From IMG/VR virus record IMGVR_UViG_2541047441_000020: 5,741 nucleotides of DNA. One strand, given 5' to 3'. The notes beneath the pieces are model-generated. The model saw nothing but the letters and a program-made list of their open reading frames with translations, was not told where the DNA came from and did no database searches. The DNA is from a virus. Taxonomy: Duplodnaviria; Heunggongvirae; Uroviricota; Caudoviricetes. Each line of letters begins with the position of its first letter. The first letter of the stretch is position 1. A program made the translations under genes and the position numbers. Positions 9 through 5,739 of this stretch are shown here, in pieces.

Positions 9-353
9 TTACTTTAATAATTTCAGTGCCTTTACATCCACTTCAACACTGCTCAGGTCTTTATCAATTTCACCCTCAATTCTTACTTTGTCTTTCGGAG
101 AAACATTCTGACCGGCCCATATGCTGTCATCGATATCCGTGACAATTGTCCCGCTATTGTCACGAAACTCATAACGTTCATCACCCACTTTTTTAACGAT
201 GCTCCCTTCAAGGATAACCCATGCATCATCCTTCAGTTCTTTTGCCTGCGCTACTGTTGAACGCTCTGCTTCAGGCCCTTGGAAACCGCCCTGCTGTGCA
301 AAAGCGCCAAAAGACACACCAGAAATAAGTGCTGCAATCAATACCTTTTTCAT
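9..353 (-). CDS. BOF (YgiW/YdeI, OB-fold) family periplasmic stress protein, 114 aa, with N-terminal signal peptide
   Basis: ATG at 353-351 preceded by AGAGGA with 6-nt spacing; TAA at 11-9. The N-terminus MKKVLIAALISGVSFGAFAQ is a typical Sec signal. QGGFQGP, DDxWVxLxG, SGTIxxDID and PKDxVxIxGExDKD match remembered YgiW/YdeI sequence. The family call is from memory. Confidence 0.85.
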   Translation of the reverse strand: MKKVLIAALISGVSFGAFAQQGGFQGPEAERSTVAQAKELKDDAWVILEGSIVKKVGDERYEFRDNSGTIVTDIDDSIWAGQNVSPKDKVRIEGEIDKDLSSVEVDVKALKLLK

Positions 354-472: not shown

Positions 473-628
473 TTACTTCTCAGATTCGTAGTCTACGAAG
501 ACAGCGACCTCCGTCTGGCCGGTTCGGACTCGTACCTCGCAGAGGTCTTTCCTCGTTACCAGTGCCGTCACTATGACGGTTAAACAGATGACGATCAGGG
601 CGATTAACATCGCCTTTTGCTGCTTCAT
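473..628 (-). CDS. hok: Hok/Gef family type I toxin, 51 aa small membrane peptide
   Basis: ATG at 628-626 preceded by AAGGAG with 9-nt spacing; TAA at 475-473. The product MKQQKAMLIALIVICLTVIVTALVTRKDLCEVRVRTGQTEVAVFVDYESEK closely matches remembered HokC/HokD: hydrophobic helix, then RKxLCE, then TGQTEVAVF. Confidence 0.85.
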   Translation of the reverse strand: MKQQKAMLIALIVICLTVIVTALVTRKDLCEVRVRTGQTEVAVFVDYESEK

Positions 629-685
629 AGCCTGCTTCTCCTTGCCTTTCGGCACGTAAGAGGCTAACCTAGATTTGCCGTTCAT
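473..685 (-). CDS. mok: mok-like in-frame upstream reading frame (70 codons) that extends hok at the N-terminus
   Basis: ATG at 685-683 with GAGG 8 nt upstream, in frame with hok. Chromosomal hok loci carry an in-frame mok of about this length. Whether it is translated is inference. Confidence 0.45.
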   Translation of the reverse strand: MNGKSRLASYVPKGKEKQAMKQQKAMLIALIVICLTVIVTALVTRKDLCEVRVRTGQTEVAVFVDYESEK

Positions 686-745
686 AGATTGAGCCTCAGA
701 TTAATGTTAGGCGTCTTGCAGGACGCGTAATGTTAACTGGGGCTT
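677..745 (+). ncRNA. sok: Putative Sok-like antisense RNA overlapping the mok start and ribosome-binding site; limits approximate
   Basis: Candidate plus-strand promoter inside the mok N-terminal codons: -35 TTGCCT (642-647), 17-nt spacer, -10 TAACCT (665-670). A transcript from about 677 would be antisense to the mok start (685-683) and its GAGG. No clean intrinsic terminator was found, so the 3' end is a guess. Confidence 0.3.
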
Positions 746-796
746 TTCTCTATCTGCCGTTGGTGTTCATGCCCGAGGCAGATAGCCTCAAGCACC
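686..796 (-). promoter_or_regulatory. hok mRNA 5' leader (tac/ucb-like region), transcription start near 796
   Basis: The minus-strand sequence from 796 reads GGGTGCTTGAGGCTATCTGCCTC..., resembling the remembered 5' end of plasmid R1 hok mRNA. It contains a 9-bp inverted repeat (750-758 with 777-785). Confidence 0.45.
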
Positions 797-803
797 CGCA
801 GCT

Positions 804-999: not shown

Positions 1000-2450
1000 T
1001 TAGTTCATTGACATGATAGTTACCTGCCTTCAATTTCCTAAGCAAGCGATGTAAACGATAATCAATATCAAATGTATTGACAGGTAAAATAATAACGATG
1101 TACCTTTGCTGATAACATATATCAGTCTTAAATCATAATGGAGGTAGATAAAATAACTAAACACACACAACAAATTTTTTATCAGTGACATAGCATATCT
1201 TAAGCATCCTTTAATGCTCATGGGGAGAACGCATGACTAAACATATGGACATTCATTGTCAAACACGCATATTTAACTCAATTAACCATGACACCAAATA
1301 TAAAATATGTATTTTTACTCCAAAAAACATTAAAAAAAATAATGCAACTCTTTATATACTTGATGGGAATAGTGCCAACAATTACATTTCTGATATTCTG
1401 CCTGTTATTGATGCACTACCCAATCCACCAGTGTTAGTTACACTTGGTTATGAATCTTGGAATAACCTTAGCATTCATCGCCGTGCTTACGATTATACTC
1501 CTGATGGTGAAAATGCTATTGTTGATAACTCTAAACCAGCATGGATCTACTTTACTGGTGGAGGAAGCCAGTCTTTCCGAGAATTATTACTAACTCAGAT
1601 CATGCCATGGGTTAGTACTATTGCTCCGAACAGTTCCAGAATCGGTATATGGGGACACTCGCTAGGTGCTATTTTTGTGCTTGATTGCTTAAAAAATAAT
1701 TCATGCTTTAACTATTATTATATATCTGCACCATCACTTCTATGGCAGAATGAAAGAATCATCAAGATAATTAAAGATGATATATCAGAATCAAAGCACA
1801 CTAAAAGTATATGCTTGCTTAACGGAAATCTTAGCCTTGATTACTCCGCATCTTTATATCCTGAAGCCATCAAAGCGGAATCTGTTTTGAGAAATATTTT
1901 GACAGAAAAATACAGTAATTTTTCTATTGTACAATTTCCAGAGCTCAATCATCAGGAGACTTTCTCTGCTGCACTCTGGAATAGCATTATTCATTTCAGC
2001 ATATAACAGAAAATATGTAATCACTTTATCAATCTAGCTAACATAACTGATATCAATCCTAATGGGTCTTTGAACATATTAAAAGATAACTTCTCATTTG
2101 TACATTGTTGTGTTCTTAGACCCATTTCAAAAATACTATTTTTTAGATACTAATAATTACATCCATTTAGCTATCTTCTAAATACTCCTCTCAGTTTCTT
2201 CATTGGAGCTGATTCAACTCCGGCAATGCATACTAGGATCATTTTATAAGCATACAAACAACATCCAGACTGTGAATTATTGCTATTCATTTTCTATGTA
2301 TCTGCTCTTTTCCCATCCACTGAAACACCAGAATCCAAAGGTTTCATGTTATTTTCACTATTCCATCATTACTCCTGTGTAAAATATCAAAACTCGCTGC
2401 ATCACTTCACTGTTACGGCACTCACTACAAATTATGTTCAATTGCCTGTC
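1000..2450. other. Low-GC islet (about 30-35% GC against about 50-55% flanking), probable horizontally acquired cargo; boundaries approximate
   Basis: Abrupt compositional shift judged by eye; the right boundary falls within the last ~30 codons of the 2358-2771 gene. No transposase, integrase or clear target-site duplication is visible. Confidence 0.6.
1233..2006 (+). CDS. Alpha/beta-hydrolase of the putative-esterase family (Fes/IroD/IroE siderophore-esterase-like), 257 aa, no signal peptide
   Basis: ATG at 1233 preceded by GGGGAGA; TAA at 2004-2006. GHSLG nucleophile elbow (Ser143), YILDGN (Asp44), RRAYDYTP (Arg84) and a C-terminal His240 in PELNH. Spacings Asp-Arg of 40 and Arg-Ser of 59 match what I recall for IroE (Asp90/Arg130/Ser189/His287); this is memory, not a search. 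The gene is very AT-rich. Confidence 0.75.
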   Translation: MTKHMDIHCQTRIFNSINHDTKYKICIFTPKNIKKNNATLYILDGNSANNYISDILPVIDALPNPPVLVTLGYESWNNLSIHRRAYDYTPDGENAIVDNSKPAWIYFTGGGSQSFRELLLTQIMPWVSTIAPNSSRIGIWGHSLGAIFVLDCLKNNSCFNYYYISAPSLLWQNERIIKIIKDDISESKHTKSICLLNGNLSLDYSASLYPEAIKAESVLRNILTEKYSNFSIVQFPELNHQETFSAALWNSIIHFSI

Positions 2451-2771
2451 ATAGCGGCGTATTTCTCCGTCTGGTAATGACCAGATAAGGTCAGGATCAA
2501 CCACAACCGGTTTCTTCAGTTTTGCCCTCGATAGTTTTTTGCGGGCGTTTTGCCAGTCCTTACGAGCCTGTTCAGATGGGAATAACCCGTAACCAGAGTT
2601 GTATACATCGCCACTGGCAACCAGCTCTCTGGCAAGAACGCTCATCAGATATCTTGTCGCACCTGTCTTGGCTTCCAGTTGCCGTAACGTCTCGCGCCCA
2701 CTCCGGCGTACTAGCTCAACAACCTGCCCTTTAATTTTTTCCCGCTCTTCCTGTGTAAATACTTTTGCCAT
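2358..2771 (-). CDS. Hypothetical prophage protein, 137 aa, with a winged-helix-like motif; function unknown
   Basis: The ORF track starts at TTG 2786, but ATG at 2771-2769 has GGAGG 5 nt upstream, immediately after the stop of the preceding gene (2789-2787). Motif LEAKTGATRYLMSVLARELVASGDVYNSGYGLF recurs in the neighbouring gene. The C-terminal ~28 codons lie in lower-GC DNA. Confidence 0.7.
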   Translation of the reverse strand: MAKVFTQEEREKIKGQVVELVRRSGRETLRQLEAKTGATRYLMSVLARELVASGDVYNSGYGLFPSEQARKDWQNARKKLSRAKLKKPVVVDPDLIWSLPDGEIRRYDRQLNIICSECRNSEVMQRVLIFYTGVMME

Positions 2772-2786
2772 AAGCGCCTCCGGCAA

Positions 2787-3455
2787 TCACTTTTCCGATA
2801 CAACACGGCGGGAAGAATCAGTAATCTGTCGAACAATATCCCGGTGCTTGTTCAGCTCCCGCAGCGCGGCGCAGACTCGCTCCCACTTCTGAACATCACT
2901 TTTCGCCCTGCGCAGCGCCAGGTTTGCCCTGCGAAGGGACGGAAAAATCAGCTCATCTGCTTGCGTTTCGGTAAACGATGGCAACGGCTGCACAATGTCC
3001 GCCACAGTTTCTGTTTTAATTTCTTCCTGTGTTGCGGCTTCCCGGACTGGTAACGCAGCACCTGCTGGCTGAGGAAAGGCCTTACCATCATTTTTCGTTA
3101 CCGGCGCGGCTTTCGGATCTGCTGGTAAATTACCCCCCGACATGCAGTAACGAAATTTACCGTTCTGATTAACGCGTGCCAGCCGCCCCGTTGCGGTTAC
3201 CACCGCCAGCGTGGAAGCAACCTTGCGAGTACTGACGCCGAACTTACCCGCCAGTTCCTCACACGTTTTAGCACCATCCTGACCGATAAACTCAACCATC
3301 ATGTCTGCGGTAACTTTTGGAGCGACCTCTTCGGTTACCACATCCGGCGCTTCAGGTTGTAGTGCCTGCCCTTCGGTTACCCCGGCTTCACCTTCGACAG
3401 CCAGAAACCAGGTGTGACCCGTTTTATCAACAACGCCATTTTTTTGAGTTCCCAC
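2787..3455 (-). CDS. Hypothetical prophage protein with winged-helix-like repeats; this ORF is probably the downstream part of a gene frameshifted at an A7 run
   Basis: 222-codon ORF whose frame opens only 3 codons upstream of its GTG start (3455), with no ribosome-binding site. The first in-frame ATG (codon 52) also lacks one. Contains [57 protein letters not shown]. Confidence 0.7.
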
Positions 3456-3556
3456 AGTTCGTTAAGAACTTCTTCACGGCTGATATCAAGCCGCGCCGCC
3501 AGTTCAACAGAATTGGCTTTTCCCATCGCTTTCAGTGCATGCAATACAGTTTCCAT
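3377..3556 (-). CDS. N-terminal segment (first 36-38 codons) of the same gene, in the -1 frame relative to 2787-3455; authentic start of the frameshifted gene
   Basis: ATG at 3556-3554 with GAGGT 9 nt upstream, directly after the DnaC-like stop (3584-3582). Encodes [39 protein letters not shown] up to the A7 tract (plus-strand T7 at 3439-3445), then stops at TAA 3379-3377. Confidence 0.45.
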
Positions 3557-3581
3557 CGAAAATTTACCTCGTCAAAAATTC

Positions 3582-4322
3582 TCACATACCCTGACGTCCA
3601 ACGTTTGACCGCCAGCTCTCCCAGTTAAAATTCACCCAACGACCACCATTCATGGTCATACGGTCCATCACCCGATCTCCGAGGAGTGTGCTCATCGCTG
3701 CGTGATTCAGGTTCGTCAGCATTCCGACACTACGCATCGAAGCCGTTCTGCGGTCGACTATCTGGTTCAGCGTGACCTGCTCGTTGCGCGTATCCCGCTG
3801 CATGCCAATTTCATCAAGGACCAGAAGGTCAACTCCACAAAGCTCCTGTAAAAATTTTTCCCCGGACTGGCCGTTGTCGTAGCCGTCATGCAACACGCTC
3901 ATGACATCGGACACGGTGACGATAATCACGCTTCTCCCCTTCGCCATCAGCCGATTGCCAATCGCTGCTGCCAGGTGATTTTTACCGGTACCAGGTTTAC
4001 CGCTGAACACGAAGTTTGTACATCCGGTCATCAATTCATCGGCAATGGATTTCGCCTGGCTCAGAGCATGGCGCTGACCGTCGTTCTGCACCCGGTAGTT
4101 CCCGAATGAGCACTTCCTGTGAAGCGGCTGGATGCCCGCACGGTTCAGGATTTTTTCAACCCGCACCTGATGATTCAGGCGGTTAATCTCCTCGCTGCGT
4201 TTTCGTCCTTCAGCAAGTTGCCATTCCCGCCACTCCTCCACCGTCCGGTACGGTGGAACCGCCCCCTGTGGTGCAAGTCTGCGAATACGTTCAAGAACCC
4301 CAACTGCCGCAATGTTTTTCAT
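3582..4322 (-). CDS. DnaC-like replicative helicase loader (AAA+ ATPase), 246 aa, prophage replication protein
   Basis: Walker A SGKPGTGKNHLAAAIG and Walker B LLVLDEIG; near-colinear with remembered E. coli DnaC (IINQIVDRR, GMLTNLN, GDRVMDRM, WVNFNWESWR). ATG at 4322 follows the O-like stop by 6 nt. Matches the ydaV position in Rac-type prophages. Confidence 0.9.
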   Translation of the reverse strand: MKNIAAVGVLERIRRLAPQGAVPPYRTVEEWREWQLAEGRKRSEEINRLNHQVRVEKILNRAGIQPLHRKCSFGNYRVQNDGQRHALSQAKSIADELMTGCTNFVFSGKPGTGKNHLAAAIGNRLMAKGRSVIIVTVSDVMSVLHDGYDNGQSGEKFLQELCGVDLLVLDEIGMQRDTRNEQVTLNQIVDRRTASMRSVGMLTNLNHAAMSTLLGDRVMDRMTMNGGRWVNFNWESWRSNVGRQGM

Positions 4323-4328
4323 GACACG

Positions 4329-5291
4329 TCACCCCCTGAATCCCGGCGGTATTTCAGTGTCCGGTTCAGAAATGTGATTCACGCAACGCTGCGCGGGCGA
4401 ACGCCCCAGGCGGATAACCAGTTCATCCCATTTTTCCCGGAGTTTTGCCGGACTCATGATGTTTTTTACCCAGAACGAATCCCGCTGGAGACGCCCAAAC
4501 ATTTCACAAATTTGTCTGTGAGTTCTGCCATCCAGCATCCGCATTGTCCGCACGTCATTGGCCCATGCAGTCCAGTTGGGTTCTTTCGGTCTCGTGATCT
4601 CGCCATCATCGCTGGCCGCCTGCTCGTAAAGACTCACGATTCGTCCCCAGATCCACTGTGCGCACACCAAATCTTCCTGACTTCCCCACTGGCGTTTTTT
4701 CGCACTGAACACAACCGCGTCAGGGTGTCGGGTTAAAAAATTCTGTTCAGCCGTCTGCGGGTCCGGTTGCGAAGCGTCCGGACAAGAAGATCTTTTATCT
4801 GACGGATCAGGTTTTAATACTGACGGATCGGGGTCAATCATCGCCCCCCTAATCGGCAGTTTGTTATCAACAGTTGATCCATCAAAATTTGACGGGTCAA
4901 CCGTTGAGGGGGCAATATTTGACGGGTCAACTGTTAACGGGTCATTTTTTGCCGGGCTAATTTTTCTTTTCGGTTTATATGACTCACGCGCCGCCGCAGC
5001 AGCTGCTTCGAGTTTTTCCACATTAAGCCGATAGATATTGCTTACATTACGCCCACCGACCTTACGCTCTTCCTTCGTCAGCCAGCCCTCTTTCGCCAGT
5101 TCTGCAATAGCCGATTTCACTGTGGATTCACTTCTTGCACCGATCTGACGCCGGATAGTTTCAATGGCAGGCCATGACACGCCCTCGTCATTGCTGTAGT
5201 CTGCAAGACGGGCCATAACCGCCACCCTGGATAAGATCATGCCGGTGAAGGCGCACCCTTCCCAGACAAGACCATGAAGCTTGCTGCTCAT
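4329..5291 (-). CDS. Phage replication initiator (lambda O-like): N-terminal helix-turn-helix domain, low-complexity linker encoded by iterons, C-terminal domain
   Basis: The ORF track starts at GTG 5306, but ATG at 5291-5289 with GGGGG upstream is the better start. N-terminus (ARLADYSNDEGVSWPAIETIRRQIGARSESTVKSAIAELAKEGWLTKEER...NVSNIYRLN) resembles initiator HTH domains. The linker repeats TVDPSN. It sits directly upstream of the DnaC-like gene. Confidence 0.8.
   Translation of the reverse strand: MSSKLHGLVWEGCAFTGMILSRVAVMARLADYSNDEGVSWPAIETIRRQIGARSESTVKSAIAELAKEGWLTKEERKVGGRNVSNIYRLNVEKLEAAAAAARESYKPKRKISPAKNDPLTVDPSNIAPSTVDPSNFDGSTVDNKLPIRGAMIDPDPSVLKPDPSDKRSSCPDASQPDPQTAEQNFLTRHPDAVVFSAKKRQWGSQEDLVCAQWIWGRIVSLYEQAASDDGEITRPKEPNWTAWANDVRTMRMLDGRTHRQICEMFGRLQRDSFWVKNIMSPAKLREKWDELVIRLGRSPAQRCVNHISEPDTEIPPGFRG
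4799..4944. repeat. Iteron cluster (putative prophage replication origin) inside the O-like gene, flanked by an AT-rich stretch at 4945-4980
   Basis: ctgacggatcagg (4799-4811) and ctgacggatcggg (4820-4832) are 21 bp apart. An exact 13-bp direct repeat tttgacgggtcaa occurs at 4888-4900 and 4918-4930 (30-bp period), with a partial third copy at 4862-4877. Each unit is dyad-symmetric (TTGAC-GG-GTCAA; TCAAC-N-GTTGA). Followed by ttttttgccgggctaatttttcttttcggtttatat. Confidence 0.55.
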
Positions 5292-5313
5292 AAAACCCCC
5301 GAACACCGTGCTT

Positions 5314-5739
5314 TTAGTGCATCACCACAGCATTCCCTGCCGGGCCGCCGCGATTCATCTGGTCATACAAAACAACCGCTGACGCAACAAAATCATCGAC
5401 ATCCTTCACCAGCCGATCCCTCCGTTCGACGATCTCACGGTAATATTCAGAACTGTGGCTGCGCATACGGGCCACCAGCAAAGGCGGCATCGCCTTTTCG
5501 ATCGCCGGTAACAGAGCCTGCATTTTTTCAACAGCATCAGGGGTGTCTTTATCCAGCCAACGGAAAATTTTCTGGGTATTACGGGCCAGGGCTTCCGGAT
5601 GGCTGTCGTCATACAGTTCCGGGAACGTCATTCCCAGCTCGAAATACGCTTTGGTAATTTTCGCAGCCGGTACTTTTTCGCCGTCCGGATGCGCCCAGAC
5701 ATTCATCGCCATGCGGATGTGTTCATGCTTGATTTTCAT
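5314..5739 (-). CDS. YdaT-like prophage protein, 141 aa, function uncertain; its start is 3 nt from the window edge
   Basis: ATG at 5739-5737, TAA at 5316-5314, 22 nt upstream of the O-like start. Its position (unknown gene, then O-like, then DnaC-like) matches ydaT-ydaU-ydaV of Rac-type prophages. The MKIKHEHI N-terminus is consistent with my recollection of YdaT, which is unverified. Confidence 0.7.
   Translation of the reverse strand: MKIKHEHIRMAMNVWAHPDGEKVPAAKITKAYFELGMTFPELYDDSHPEALARNTQKIFRWLDKDTPDAVEKMQALLPAIEKAMPPLLVARMRSHSSEYYREIVERRDRLVKDVDDFVASAVVLYDQMNRGGPAGNAVVMH

Follow-up and report, generated by a model that had tools for sequence, protein, structure and literature searches.

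What are the two small genes that lie between the replication genes and the cargo of this prophage, and what might their products do? The window, by which we mean the whole 5,741-nucleotide stretch of viral DNA analyzed here, contains the last part of the early rightward operon from a Rac-like lambdoid E. coli prophage, in which YdaT, an O-like initiator and a DnaC-like loader are followed by the two genes in question, here called gene 1 and gene 2. The initial annotation had put them between the replication module and the cargo, and this is where they lie, with the initiator and the loader before them and a low-GC cargo gene after. Its coordinates (3556 to 2787 and 2771 to 2358, both on the minus strand) were also correct. 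The genes had further been described as co-oriented and translationally coupled; the first part stands, but because the two do not overlap and lie 15 nt apart (TGA of gene 1 to ATG of gene 2), coupling is only possible. The same pair is annotated by RefSeq in E. coli O121 and EDL933, and some part of the region was matched in 4,233 of 5,426 complete E. coli genomes. Probable origin iterons lie ∼1.3 kb upstream, within the initiator gene, and the sole match in an Rfam scan was sok, outside both genes. The genes are positioned as follows.

3582 to 4322, minus strand: DnaC/IstB-like helicase loader (PF01695, E 1.5e-19), the upstream neighbor, given as context and outside the finding
2787 to 3556, minus strand: gene 1, DUF1627/YdaW family (PF07789, phrog_630), ATG at 3556, frame interrupted
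2358 to 2771, minus strand: gene 2, DUF977 ("LygF"), Ren-like, 137 aa (PF06163), ATG at 2771, stop at 2360-2358

The initial annotation had left both families unplaced, and both can now be assigned to catalogued ones. By its sequence, gene 1 belongs to DUF1627 (PF07789, phrog_630), the family of YdaW from the Rac prophage of E. coli K-12. The reconstructed fusion had been given as 258 aa, but adding a single A to the interrupted frame yields a product of 256 aa. This repaired product matches PF07789 with 331.6 bits (E 7.5e-100, cut-off 28.1), residues 91-245 covering profile positions 1-155 of 155, and phrog_630 with E 1.6e-131 over positions 1-252 of 253, and it aligns end to end with 38 diverse homologues. 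Two catalogued E. coli proteins, P0001 (100% identity over 254 residues) and P0002 (98%), match it closely, and both are named "DUF1627 domain-containing protein." YdaW itself (b1361, 186 aa) occupies the same place in K-12 Rac, after ydaU-ydaV, and shares 57% identity with gene 1 over residues 1-154, a region comprising the first winged helix, the linker and the second winged helix. The K-12 protein lacks the conserved C-terminal domain because a deletion in Rac fuses YdaW to rzpR; it is thus shortened, whereas gene 1 of the window is complete in length but loses its frame at residue 39/40.

The architecture predicted for the repaired product with AlphaFold2 is an acidic winged helix (WH1), a disordered linker, a basic winged helix (WH2), an acidic disordered linker and a basic helical hairpin, which map to the DNA together with the site of the frame change as follows.

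3393 to 3556, minus strand: WH1, residues 1-55 (helices 4-11, 16-23 and 27-39, strands 43-46 and 49-52; pLDDT 92-97)
3439 to 3445, minus strand: A7 homopolymer (T7 on the plus strand) at which the frame of gene 1 changes; intact alleles have A8
3138 to 3311, minus strand: WH2, residues 83-140 (helices 84-94, 99-106 and 110-123, strands 127-131 and 134-138; pLDDT >90)
2790 to 2942, minus strand: C-terminal basic helical hairpin, residues 206-256 (helices 208-237 and 239-254; pLDDT >90)

The charges of these parts differ markedly, with a family mean net charge of -2.1 for WH1 (-1.6 for its helix 3) and of +3.7 for WH2, and with -6.5 in the second disordered linker followed by +6.2 in the C-terminal domain. 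The hairpin, which the initial annotation did not mention, is conserved across the homologue alignment and has no similarity to the winged-helix modules (hhalign controls, E 0.08-0.3).

In the window gene 1 has no intact open reading frame. It is split into a 59-aa ORF (3556 to 3377) and a 222-aa ORF (3455 to 2787), which overlap in different frames at the A7 run, and the frame is lost within WH1, at the junction of the third helix and the wing. The run is A7 in the window and in loci L004 and L006 and A8 in L001 and L005, and the non-O157 relatives of the A7 allele have A8 and a single intact ORF. EDL933 (O157:H7) carries an allele identical to that of the window, labeled a "frameshifted" pseudogene by NCBI PGAP, and of 60 genomes sampled evenly, 25 had the A7 form, almost all of these being named O157:H7 or O157. 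Gene 1 has therefore been inactivated here by an A8-to-A7 frameshift that is inherited in an O157:H7-type prophage lineage, and the pseudogene is real rather than an assembly error. Its loss in a successful lineage indicates that gene 1 is dispensable there, and gene 2 alone is expected to be fully functional in the window.

It could be argued that the break is instead programmed, with -1 ribosomal frameshifting or transcriptional slippage on C-AAA-AAA-A giving products of 59 and 256 aa. A -1 slip on A7 would yield precisely the protein of the A8 allele, and the A7 form is stably kept in many of the O157:H7-type genomes sampled. We consider this very unlikely, however. Besides the intact A8 relatives and the pseudogene label, the C that precedes the run leaves the heptamer without a matching first base, and the distribution of alleles is consistent with a single mutation handed down within a clonal lineage. 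Moreover, when the sequences were read directly, the long A run was confined to one allele group (6 pattern-matching copies among 82 loci and the window), and the homologue alignment shows that other family members code differently at this position, so that it is not a conserved slippery site. Programmed frameshifting was thus rejected as the main reading.

Gene 2 can likewise be placed from its profile matches. It fits PF06163 with 95.5 bits (E 3.7e-27, cut-off 22.1) over profile positions 1-131 of 134 and phrog_142, "Ren-like exclusion protein," with E 4.4e-45 over positions 1-112 of 116, and no NCBIfam family matches it. A GGAGG lies 5-6 nt 5' of its ATG, and the 142-aa version beginning at a TTG stems from mechanical ORF listing. 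Identical copies (100%) are present in L001, in L003-L007, in E. coli O121 RM8352 and in IMG/VR contigs, and gene 2 is a member of the DUF977/"LygF" group of E. coli and Salmonella prophages (PF06163) with no notable difference from it. "LygF" is the name given to DUF977 in phage records, and a literature search with it returned only unrelated matches and Salmonella genome announcements. DUF977 was called a winged helix in 2009 by Kinch et al. (PMC2686095), who also describe DUF977 domains fused to Fic, which gene 2 is not. Two parts of gene 2 recur in the comparisons below.

2577 to 2753, minus strand: winged helix, residues 7-65 (AlphaFold2 helices 7-24, 29-36 and 40-53 plus a β-hairpin; pLDDT 92-96)
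2373 to 2444, minus strand: C-terminal motif shared with lambda Ren, seen by BLASTP, by hhalign and in the invariant columns of the joint alignment

The sequence evidence makes gene 2 a DUF977 member and a longer relative of lambda Ren, standing in Ren's position after the replication genes. Lambda Ren (NP_040633, 96 aa) matches phrog_142 with E 1.6e-41 over positions 11-110, so that both proteins fall in the same PHROG, and they share an N-terminal winged helix with a T-G-A-T turn and the C-terminal motif N-x-I-x-x-EC-R-x-S-x-x-M-x-R-V-L-x-x-Y-G. Both genes directly follow the replication genes of the pR operon, in a synteny like that of lambda O-P-ren. Pairwise comparison detects the C terminus, with BLASTP giving 50% identity over the C-terminal 20 aa only and a shallow hhalign comparison aligning only the C-terminal 23 residues (probability 93%, E 2.8e-7). 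The full-length link rests on the common PHROG profile and on a MAFFT alignment, in which the winged helix and the C terminus align at ∼30% identity. In the joint alignment Asn-112, Ile-114, Glu-117, Cys-118, Ser-121, Met-124, Arg-126, Leu-128, Tyr-131 and Gly-133 are invariant. Gene 2 differs from Ren in being 41 residues longer: its N terminus is extended by 10 residues, and ∼35 more, which form a very basic helix and a low-confidence loop, are inserted between the winged helix and the C-terminal helix. Gene 2 also passes the Pfam DUF977 model, of which lambda Ren itself falls short.

The initial annotation had proposed three winged-helix modules, two in gene 1 and one in gene 2, and the AlphaFold2 models bear this out, predicting a canonical winged helix for each, with the order helix-(strand)-helix-helix-β-hairpin and pLDDT >90. 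The similarity that it had seen among the modules also holds between profiles, which align in register by hhalign with E 1.5e-7 for modules 1 and 2, 7e-7 for 2 and 3 and 1e-4 for 1 and 3. Compared as single sequences, modules 2 and 3 are significantly similar (Smith-Waterman z 5.6, BLASTP E 1e-4), modules 1 and 2 weakly so (Smith-Waterman z 2.7) and modules 1 and 3 not significantly; as only one pair reaches significance in this way, family profiles are needed to compare the modules. WH2 also matches phrog_142, the Ren-like family, with E 4.6e-6.

Among the best 50 matches of each Foldseek search there were only winged-helix-containing proteins, from the ESCRT-II, ScpB, SelB, MarR, ArsR, GntR, Zα, FeoC and AspA families, and those of gene 2 were GntR, MarR, IclR, Zα and AspA, with single-domain superpositions of 1.2-2.7 Å over 55-65 residues. 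Sequence searches of the PDB gave generic winged-helix matches and no solved relative; with its family profile, WH2 reached AspA, ArsR and Zα chains at E 5e-4 to 6e-3. PADLOC returned nothing for gene 2 and for gene 1 only weak matches to the winged-helix parts of Csa3, CasR and CARF proteins (best E 1.2e-5). The fold is a generic one and would suit a plain transcription factor just as well.

Two of these likenesses deserve comment. The best Foldseek matches of the whole gene 1 model (probability 1.0, E 8e-4 to 5e-3) are tandem winged-helix adaptors, namely ScpB, ESCRT-II subunits, the C terminus of SelB and UFL1/DDRGK1, which resemble gene 1 in carrying two winged helices per chain; one or both of these domains make contacts with protein or RNA. 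The adaptors have no sequence relationship to gene 1, however, and no counterpart of its C-terminal hairpin, and because the winged helices of gene 1 are not packed against each other but joined through a disordered linker (∼28 residues), the TM-scores are low (∼0.2). The other likeness is to the Zα domains of ADAR1, ZBP1 and PKZ, which the WH2 profile matches at E 7e-4 to 6e-3 and on which both predicted models superpose to 1.5-1.9 Å over 57-62 residues. Zα domains are defined by an asparagine and a tyrosine in helix 3 (Asn-173 and Tyr-177 of ADAR1) and by a P-P-x-W wing. WH2 has Ala-115 and Ala-119 at the equivalent positions in the alignment to 2l54, and its wing, N-Q-N-G-K-F-R-Y, lacks P-P-x-W; we therefore rejected a Zα reading of WH2. 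The chain 2l54, the best Zα-chain match by phmmer, likewise has alanine at both aligned positions. In the blocks of the homologue alignment the first position is mostly alanine and the second alanine or another small residue, with asparagine or tyrosine in none.

We surveyed the neighborhood of the genes in 69 closely related E. coli prophage loci, a check that the initial annotation had proposed, and found DUF977 always after the replication module. In 57 of these loci DUF1627 has a helicase loader on one side and DUF977 on the other. The loader immediately 5' of it is DnaC/IstB-like in 43 and of another type in 14; a lambda-P-like protein was seen in the seven of these 14 that were inspected, with Pfam confirmation for one. 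DUF1627 is missing from all 12 of the loci that have no loader. Given how closely related the surveyed loci are, it may simply be that DUF1627 and a loader occur together as co-inherited mosaic modules. A search for related loci, made from a nine-sequence alignment, gave 11. In other species and in distant relatives the gene before DUF1627 is once more a P-like or DnaC-like loader, or an initiator, and three distant loci, of which two are P2-like, have DUF1627 next to Exonuc_VIII/RecT. The pairing of DUF1627 with DUF977 is missing from the loci of E. ruysiae, Salmonella, Serratia and Enterobacter. An obligate two-gene system was rejected, since each gene is also found without the other, DUF977 in 12 loci and DUF1627 in other species. 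Rrf2-like and HTH_24-like proteins are also present in this slot in relatives.

Toothman and Herskowitz are reported to have found in 1980 that lambda phages mutant in ren are subject to exclusion by Rex. The Rex-resistance phenotype is known from lambda Ren only, the likeness of gene 2 to it being one of sequence and predicted structure. The best overall explanation, which we regard as probable, is that the locus encodes a DUF1627/YdaW protein, disabled here by an inherited frameshift, and a Ren-like DUF977 protein, with an accessory role in evading exclusion. The functional part of this explanation is tentative: by analogy, the two may be non-essential accessory early proteins that act in the manner of Ren against abortive-infection exclusion. 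Made alongside the replication proteins as accessories of a "ren slot," they would act, like Ren, on the replication or recombination machinery, on its DNA intermediates or on the sensors that watch these, and phage replication would thereby avoid tripping exclusion of the RexAB or retron type. Within gene 1, nucleic-acid contacts and oligomerization would fall to WH2 and the basic C-terminal hairpin, and contact with a protein partner to the acidic WH1. Two-hybrid work is reported to show Rex proteins in contact with O and Ren (bioRxiv 10.1101/2021.04.19.439022). In a retron screen ydaW is listed as one of the prophage "blockers" of RcaT toxicity from retron-Sen2, and recE as a trigger (bioRxiv 10.1101/2020.06.22.160242); the ydaW in question was the truncated K-12 form, overexpressed.

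Two other roles have to be weighed against this one, the three together being those that the initial annotation had suggested. The proteins could be ordinary regulators of the MarR, ArsR or GntR type that bind prophage operators and tune delayed-early (nin-region) or cargo genes, as might be expected from three winged-helix modules whose nearest solved structures are mostly MarR, ArsR, GntR and IclR proteins and from the basic character of WH2 and of helix 4 of gene 2. YdaW has also been counted as a predicted E. coli transcription factor (PMC9308461), and some sources call Ren fragments "MarR family transcriptional regulator." We nevertheless consider such a role unlikely. All Pfam and NCBIfam regulator models score below their cut-offs (for example, HTH_11 24.3 against 25 and ArsR/SmtB 25.3 against 55, with the HTH_11, ArsR and TrmB matches of WH1 all subthreshold), the recognition helix of WH1 is acidic, and gene 1, with its two winged helices, long disordered linkers and helical hairpin, is unlike the one-domain dimeric repressors. 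A scan of positions 1900-3700 found no promoter-like or terminator-like signal exceeding shuffled expectation and no obvious operator adjoining the genes. Nor is lambda Ren known to have a regulatory phenotype. Our best inference from these comparisons favors an accessory early role, perhaps against exclusion, over that of a classical repressor.

Alternatively, the proteins might work with the loader and initiator at the origin as replication accessory factors, affecting replisome loading, remodeling or timing in the way of DnaD-, DnaT- or Orc-type winged helices. The place right after the initiator and loader is kept across two unrelated loader types, DUF1627 goes missing where no loader is encoded, the probable origin iterons are near, and Thomason et al. 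term ren "likely involved in DNA replication." Against this, lambda ren is non-essential and is not needed for P-lethality or replicative killing (PMC3640518), the O157:H7-type prophage lineage carries gene 1 in frameshifted form, DUF1627 stands beside RecE, and not beside a loader, in the three distant loci, and Pfam finds no similarity to DnaD, DnaT or Rep_3 domains. We therefore think a replication accessory role quite unlikely. Returning to the anti-exclusion role, a bolder version of it, which we put forward as doubtful, is that the slot, which in temperate enterobacterial phages follows the replication or recombination genes, may be set aside for small "shield" proteins with winged helices (Ren, DUF977, DUF1627/YdaW and the Rrf2-like and HTH_24-like proteins) that would mask the loader, the initiator, RecE or DNA intermediates from sensors of the RexAB or retron-Sen2 type. 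DUF1627 would then be a two-headed adaptor traveling specifically with helicase loaders that the phage encodes, its acidic winged helix turned to a protein partner and its basic winged helix and basic hairpin to nucleic acid.

Both families are already catalogued and their winged-helix nature is in the literature, and the two genes are common and ordinary, so that they carry little weight as a discovery. For genome annotators, the O157:H7-type allele of gene 1 is a true inherited pseudogene. For the biology of these prophages, the kinship of DUF977 with Ren, the association of DUF1627, in the sampled loci, with two unrelated loader types or with RecE, and the listing of ydaW as a retron-toxin blocker in a published screen provide handles on the idea that the proteins encoded here may serve against exclusion.

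A Rac-like lambdoid prophage has its early rightward operon on the minus strand of the window, and the two genes, here called gene 1 and gene 2, lie in it. The features of the window are as follows.

5739..5314, minus strand: YdaT-like gene
5306..4329, minus strand: O-like initiator with an HTH_36 domain
4322..3582, minus strand: DnaC/IstB-like helicase loader, after which gene 1 and gene 2 come next
3556..2787, minus strand: gene 1, DUF1627/YdaW family
2771..2358, minus strand: gene 2, DUF977 family, 137 aa (ATG at 2771, stop at 2358), GGAGG upstream of the ATG
1233..2006, plus strand, opposite to the phage operon and downstream of gene 2: alpha/beta-hydrolase gene of low GC (0.32-0.36)
473-797, minus strand, downstream of both genes: hok/sok type I toxin-antitoxin locus
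9-353, minus strand, downstream of both genes: BOF-family gene

E. coli O121 RM8352 has the same gene order and is 97.7% identical over both genes, which are annotated there as 'DUF1627 domain-containing protein' and 'DUF977 family protein'. Within the initiator gene, five direct repeats of TCAAC-N-GTTGA-like units with 15-nt spacing (4867-4956) translate as the repeated peptide STVDPSN of the O-like initiator and probably form an origin iteron array within the gene, as in lambda O. The hydrolase gene resembles a moron or cargo insertion; its Pfam Esterase match is weak, in E. coli O121 it carries the RefSeq label 'alpha/beta hydrolase', and a PADLOC search returned no match for it. A sok match (Rfam RF01794, 105.6 bits) covers 623-797, with a Hok/Gef ORF at 473..685, and the BOF protein is a YgiW/YdeI-like OB-fold protein (PF04076, E 5e-33) with a signal-peptide-like N terminus.

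Each of the two genes falls into a catalogued family, with identical proteins already deposited, an ordinary finding. Gene 1 matches phrog_630 along its whole length and PF07789 (DUF1627) with an E value of 7.5e-100. The family is small: a search of 1.84 billion proteins gave only 173 representatives at E≤1e-3. All loci retrieved by name belong to Enterobacterales (Escherichia, Salmonella, Serratia, Enterobacter and Buttiauxella). The homologue in the Rac prophage of E. coli K-12, YdaW, is 57% identical over residues 1-154 and is cut off after the second winged helix by the Rac deletion; this ydaW (4753-5313 of the K-12 locus, L092) encodes a DUF1627 protein lacking its C-terminal domain. Gene 2 matches PF06163 (DUF977) with an E value of 3.7e-27. 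Its E value against phrog_142, 'Ren-like exclusion protein', is 4.4e-45, and lambda Ren itself matches that PHROG at 1.6e-41. Ren and the gene 2 product share ∼30% identity across the winged helix and a common C-terminal motif, and Ren follows O and P in lambda, a position equivalent to the slot of gene 2.

The reading frame of gene 1, which opens with an ATG at 3556, switches at a run of seven A residues (A7; T7 on the plus strand, 3439-3445), where ORFs of 59 and 222 aa overlap. Adding one A yields a 256-aa product, so that the 258-aa fusion reconstructed in the initial annotation was essentially right apart from its length. Over 254 residues the repaired product has 100% identity with a catalogued E. 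coli protein; with the full-length catalogued protein P0002 the identity is 98%. Two close relatives (L001 and L005) carry A8 and an intact 771-nt gene; A7 is present in the window and in two IMG/VR contigs. O157:H7 genomes, among them EDL933, share the 121 nt spanning the A7 run at 100% identity; NCBI PGAP calls the EDL933 copy 'frameshifted'. In an even sample of 60 from 683 matching genomes, A7 occurred in 25, nearly all named O157:H7 or O157, and A8, the 122-nt form, was carried by the sampled strains of O26, O103, O121 and O104. Among directly read sequences, a long A run occurs in this A7/A8 allele group alone, and other family members are coded differently at its position. Gene 1 in the window is most simply read as a lineage-specific pseudogene that would stem from a single inherited homopolymer deletion. 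A trace of full-length product from the A7 allele is conceivable, because a -1 slip would regenerate the whole protein. Only 15 nt separate the two genes, which share a frame, and their translation could be coupled. The gene 1 stop (TGA, 2787-2789) reads in frame into the gene 2 ATG (...VVSEK*LPEALMAKVF...), and in P0034, a metagenome-derived protein of 403 aa and a single member, GGA replaces TGA to place all three winged helices in one chain.

An AlphaFold2 model of gene 1, built on P0002 with 38 diverse homologues (mean pLDDT 78.8), has confident winged helices at residues 4-52 (WH1) and 84-138 (WH2) and a confident C-terminal helical hairpin (208-254), with disordered linkers at 55-80 and 140-205. 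Foldseek against the PDB matched the tandem to ESCRT-II, ScpB, SelB and UFL1/DDRGK1 and single domains to MarR, ArsR, Zα, FeoC and AspA, the latter superposing at 1.2-2.7 Å. For gene 2, modelled from 26 sequences with Ren relatives among them, the winged helix and a fourth helix are confident (residues 7-83, pLDDT 88-96) and the C-terminal helix is less certain; the Foldseek matches are GntR, MarR, IclR, Zα and AspA. Profile-profile comparison related the three modules pairwise, all in register, at E values of 1.5e-7, 7e-7 and 1e-4, against 0.08-0.3 for controls. The proposal, made from sequence alone, of three similar winged-helix-like modules across the two genes is therefore upheld by both approaches; for DUF977 the winged-helix nature had already been published (Kinch et al. 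2009, PMC2686095). WH2 is Zα-like in sequence and shape, and its assignment as a Zα domain was rejected on the alanine at both Z-DNA-contacting positions.

We surveyed 69 E. coli prophage loci from IMG/VR with enough upstream sequence (within L003-L082). DUF977 lies downstream of the replication module in all 69, and in 57 of them DUF1627 sits between the helicase loader and DUF977 with a fixed spacer. Of these loci, 43 have a DnaC-like loader and 14 a loader of a different type; all seven inspected of the latter encode a lambda-P-like protein (one Pfam-confirmed). In the remaining 12 loci, which have no loader, DUF977 directly follows the initiator and DUF1627 is absent. No DnaC-like loader without DUF1627 was found among the surveyed loci. 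Since these are closely related and phylogenetically non-independent, the split (57/57 loader-encoding versus 0/12 loader-less loci) can be taken as suggestive, not as statistical. In other species and distant relatives DUF1627 follows a loader of the P-like or DnaC-like type (called by eye on sequence similarity), follows the initiator, or precedes the replication genes, often near a second small winged-helix protein (DUF977, Rrf2-like or HTH_24-like). In two P2-like prophages (L084 and L085; 6001-6011) it overlaps the 3' end of an Exonuc_VIII gene, and in L091 it lies two genes downstream of Exonuc_VIII-RecT, in the order Exonuc_VIII-RecT-DUF977-NinX-DUF1627. The overlap in the P2-like pair places the DUF1627 start 11 nt inside the end of a RecE-like gene of 661-744 aa, and these relatives are 28-37% identical. 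Given such varied contexts, DUF1627 and DUF977 are separable modules in one slot and not an obligate pair.

WH1 is acidic throughout the family, its third helix included (mean charge -2.1), whereas WH2 (+3.7), the C-terminal hairpin (+6.2) and especially helix 4 of gene 2 (+7) are basic, a distribution that suggests one protein-contacting head and nucleic-acid-contacting parts. Lambda ren is non-essential, and genetically it is known for allowing lambda to escape Rex exclusion. It is dispensable for P-lethality and replicative killing (PMC3640518), and two-hybrid work reports contacts of Rex proteins with O and with Ren (bioRxiv 10.1101/2021.04.19.439022). A retron-Sen2 study names ydaW as one of the prophage genes blocking RcaT toxicity and, in the same screen, recE as trigger of the toxin (bioRxiv 10.1101/2020.06.22.160242).

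From the module charges together with the ren, Rex and retron hints, we tentatively infer that the two proteins might shield a replication or recombination stage of the phage from abortive-infection sensors. That they are plain regulators is somewhat less likely, and a role as replication accessory factors a little less likely still.
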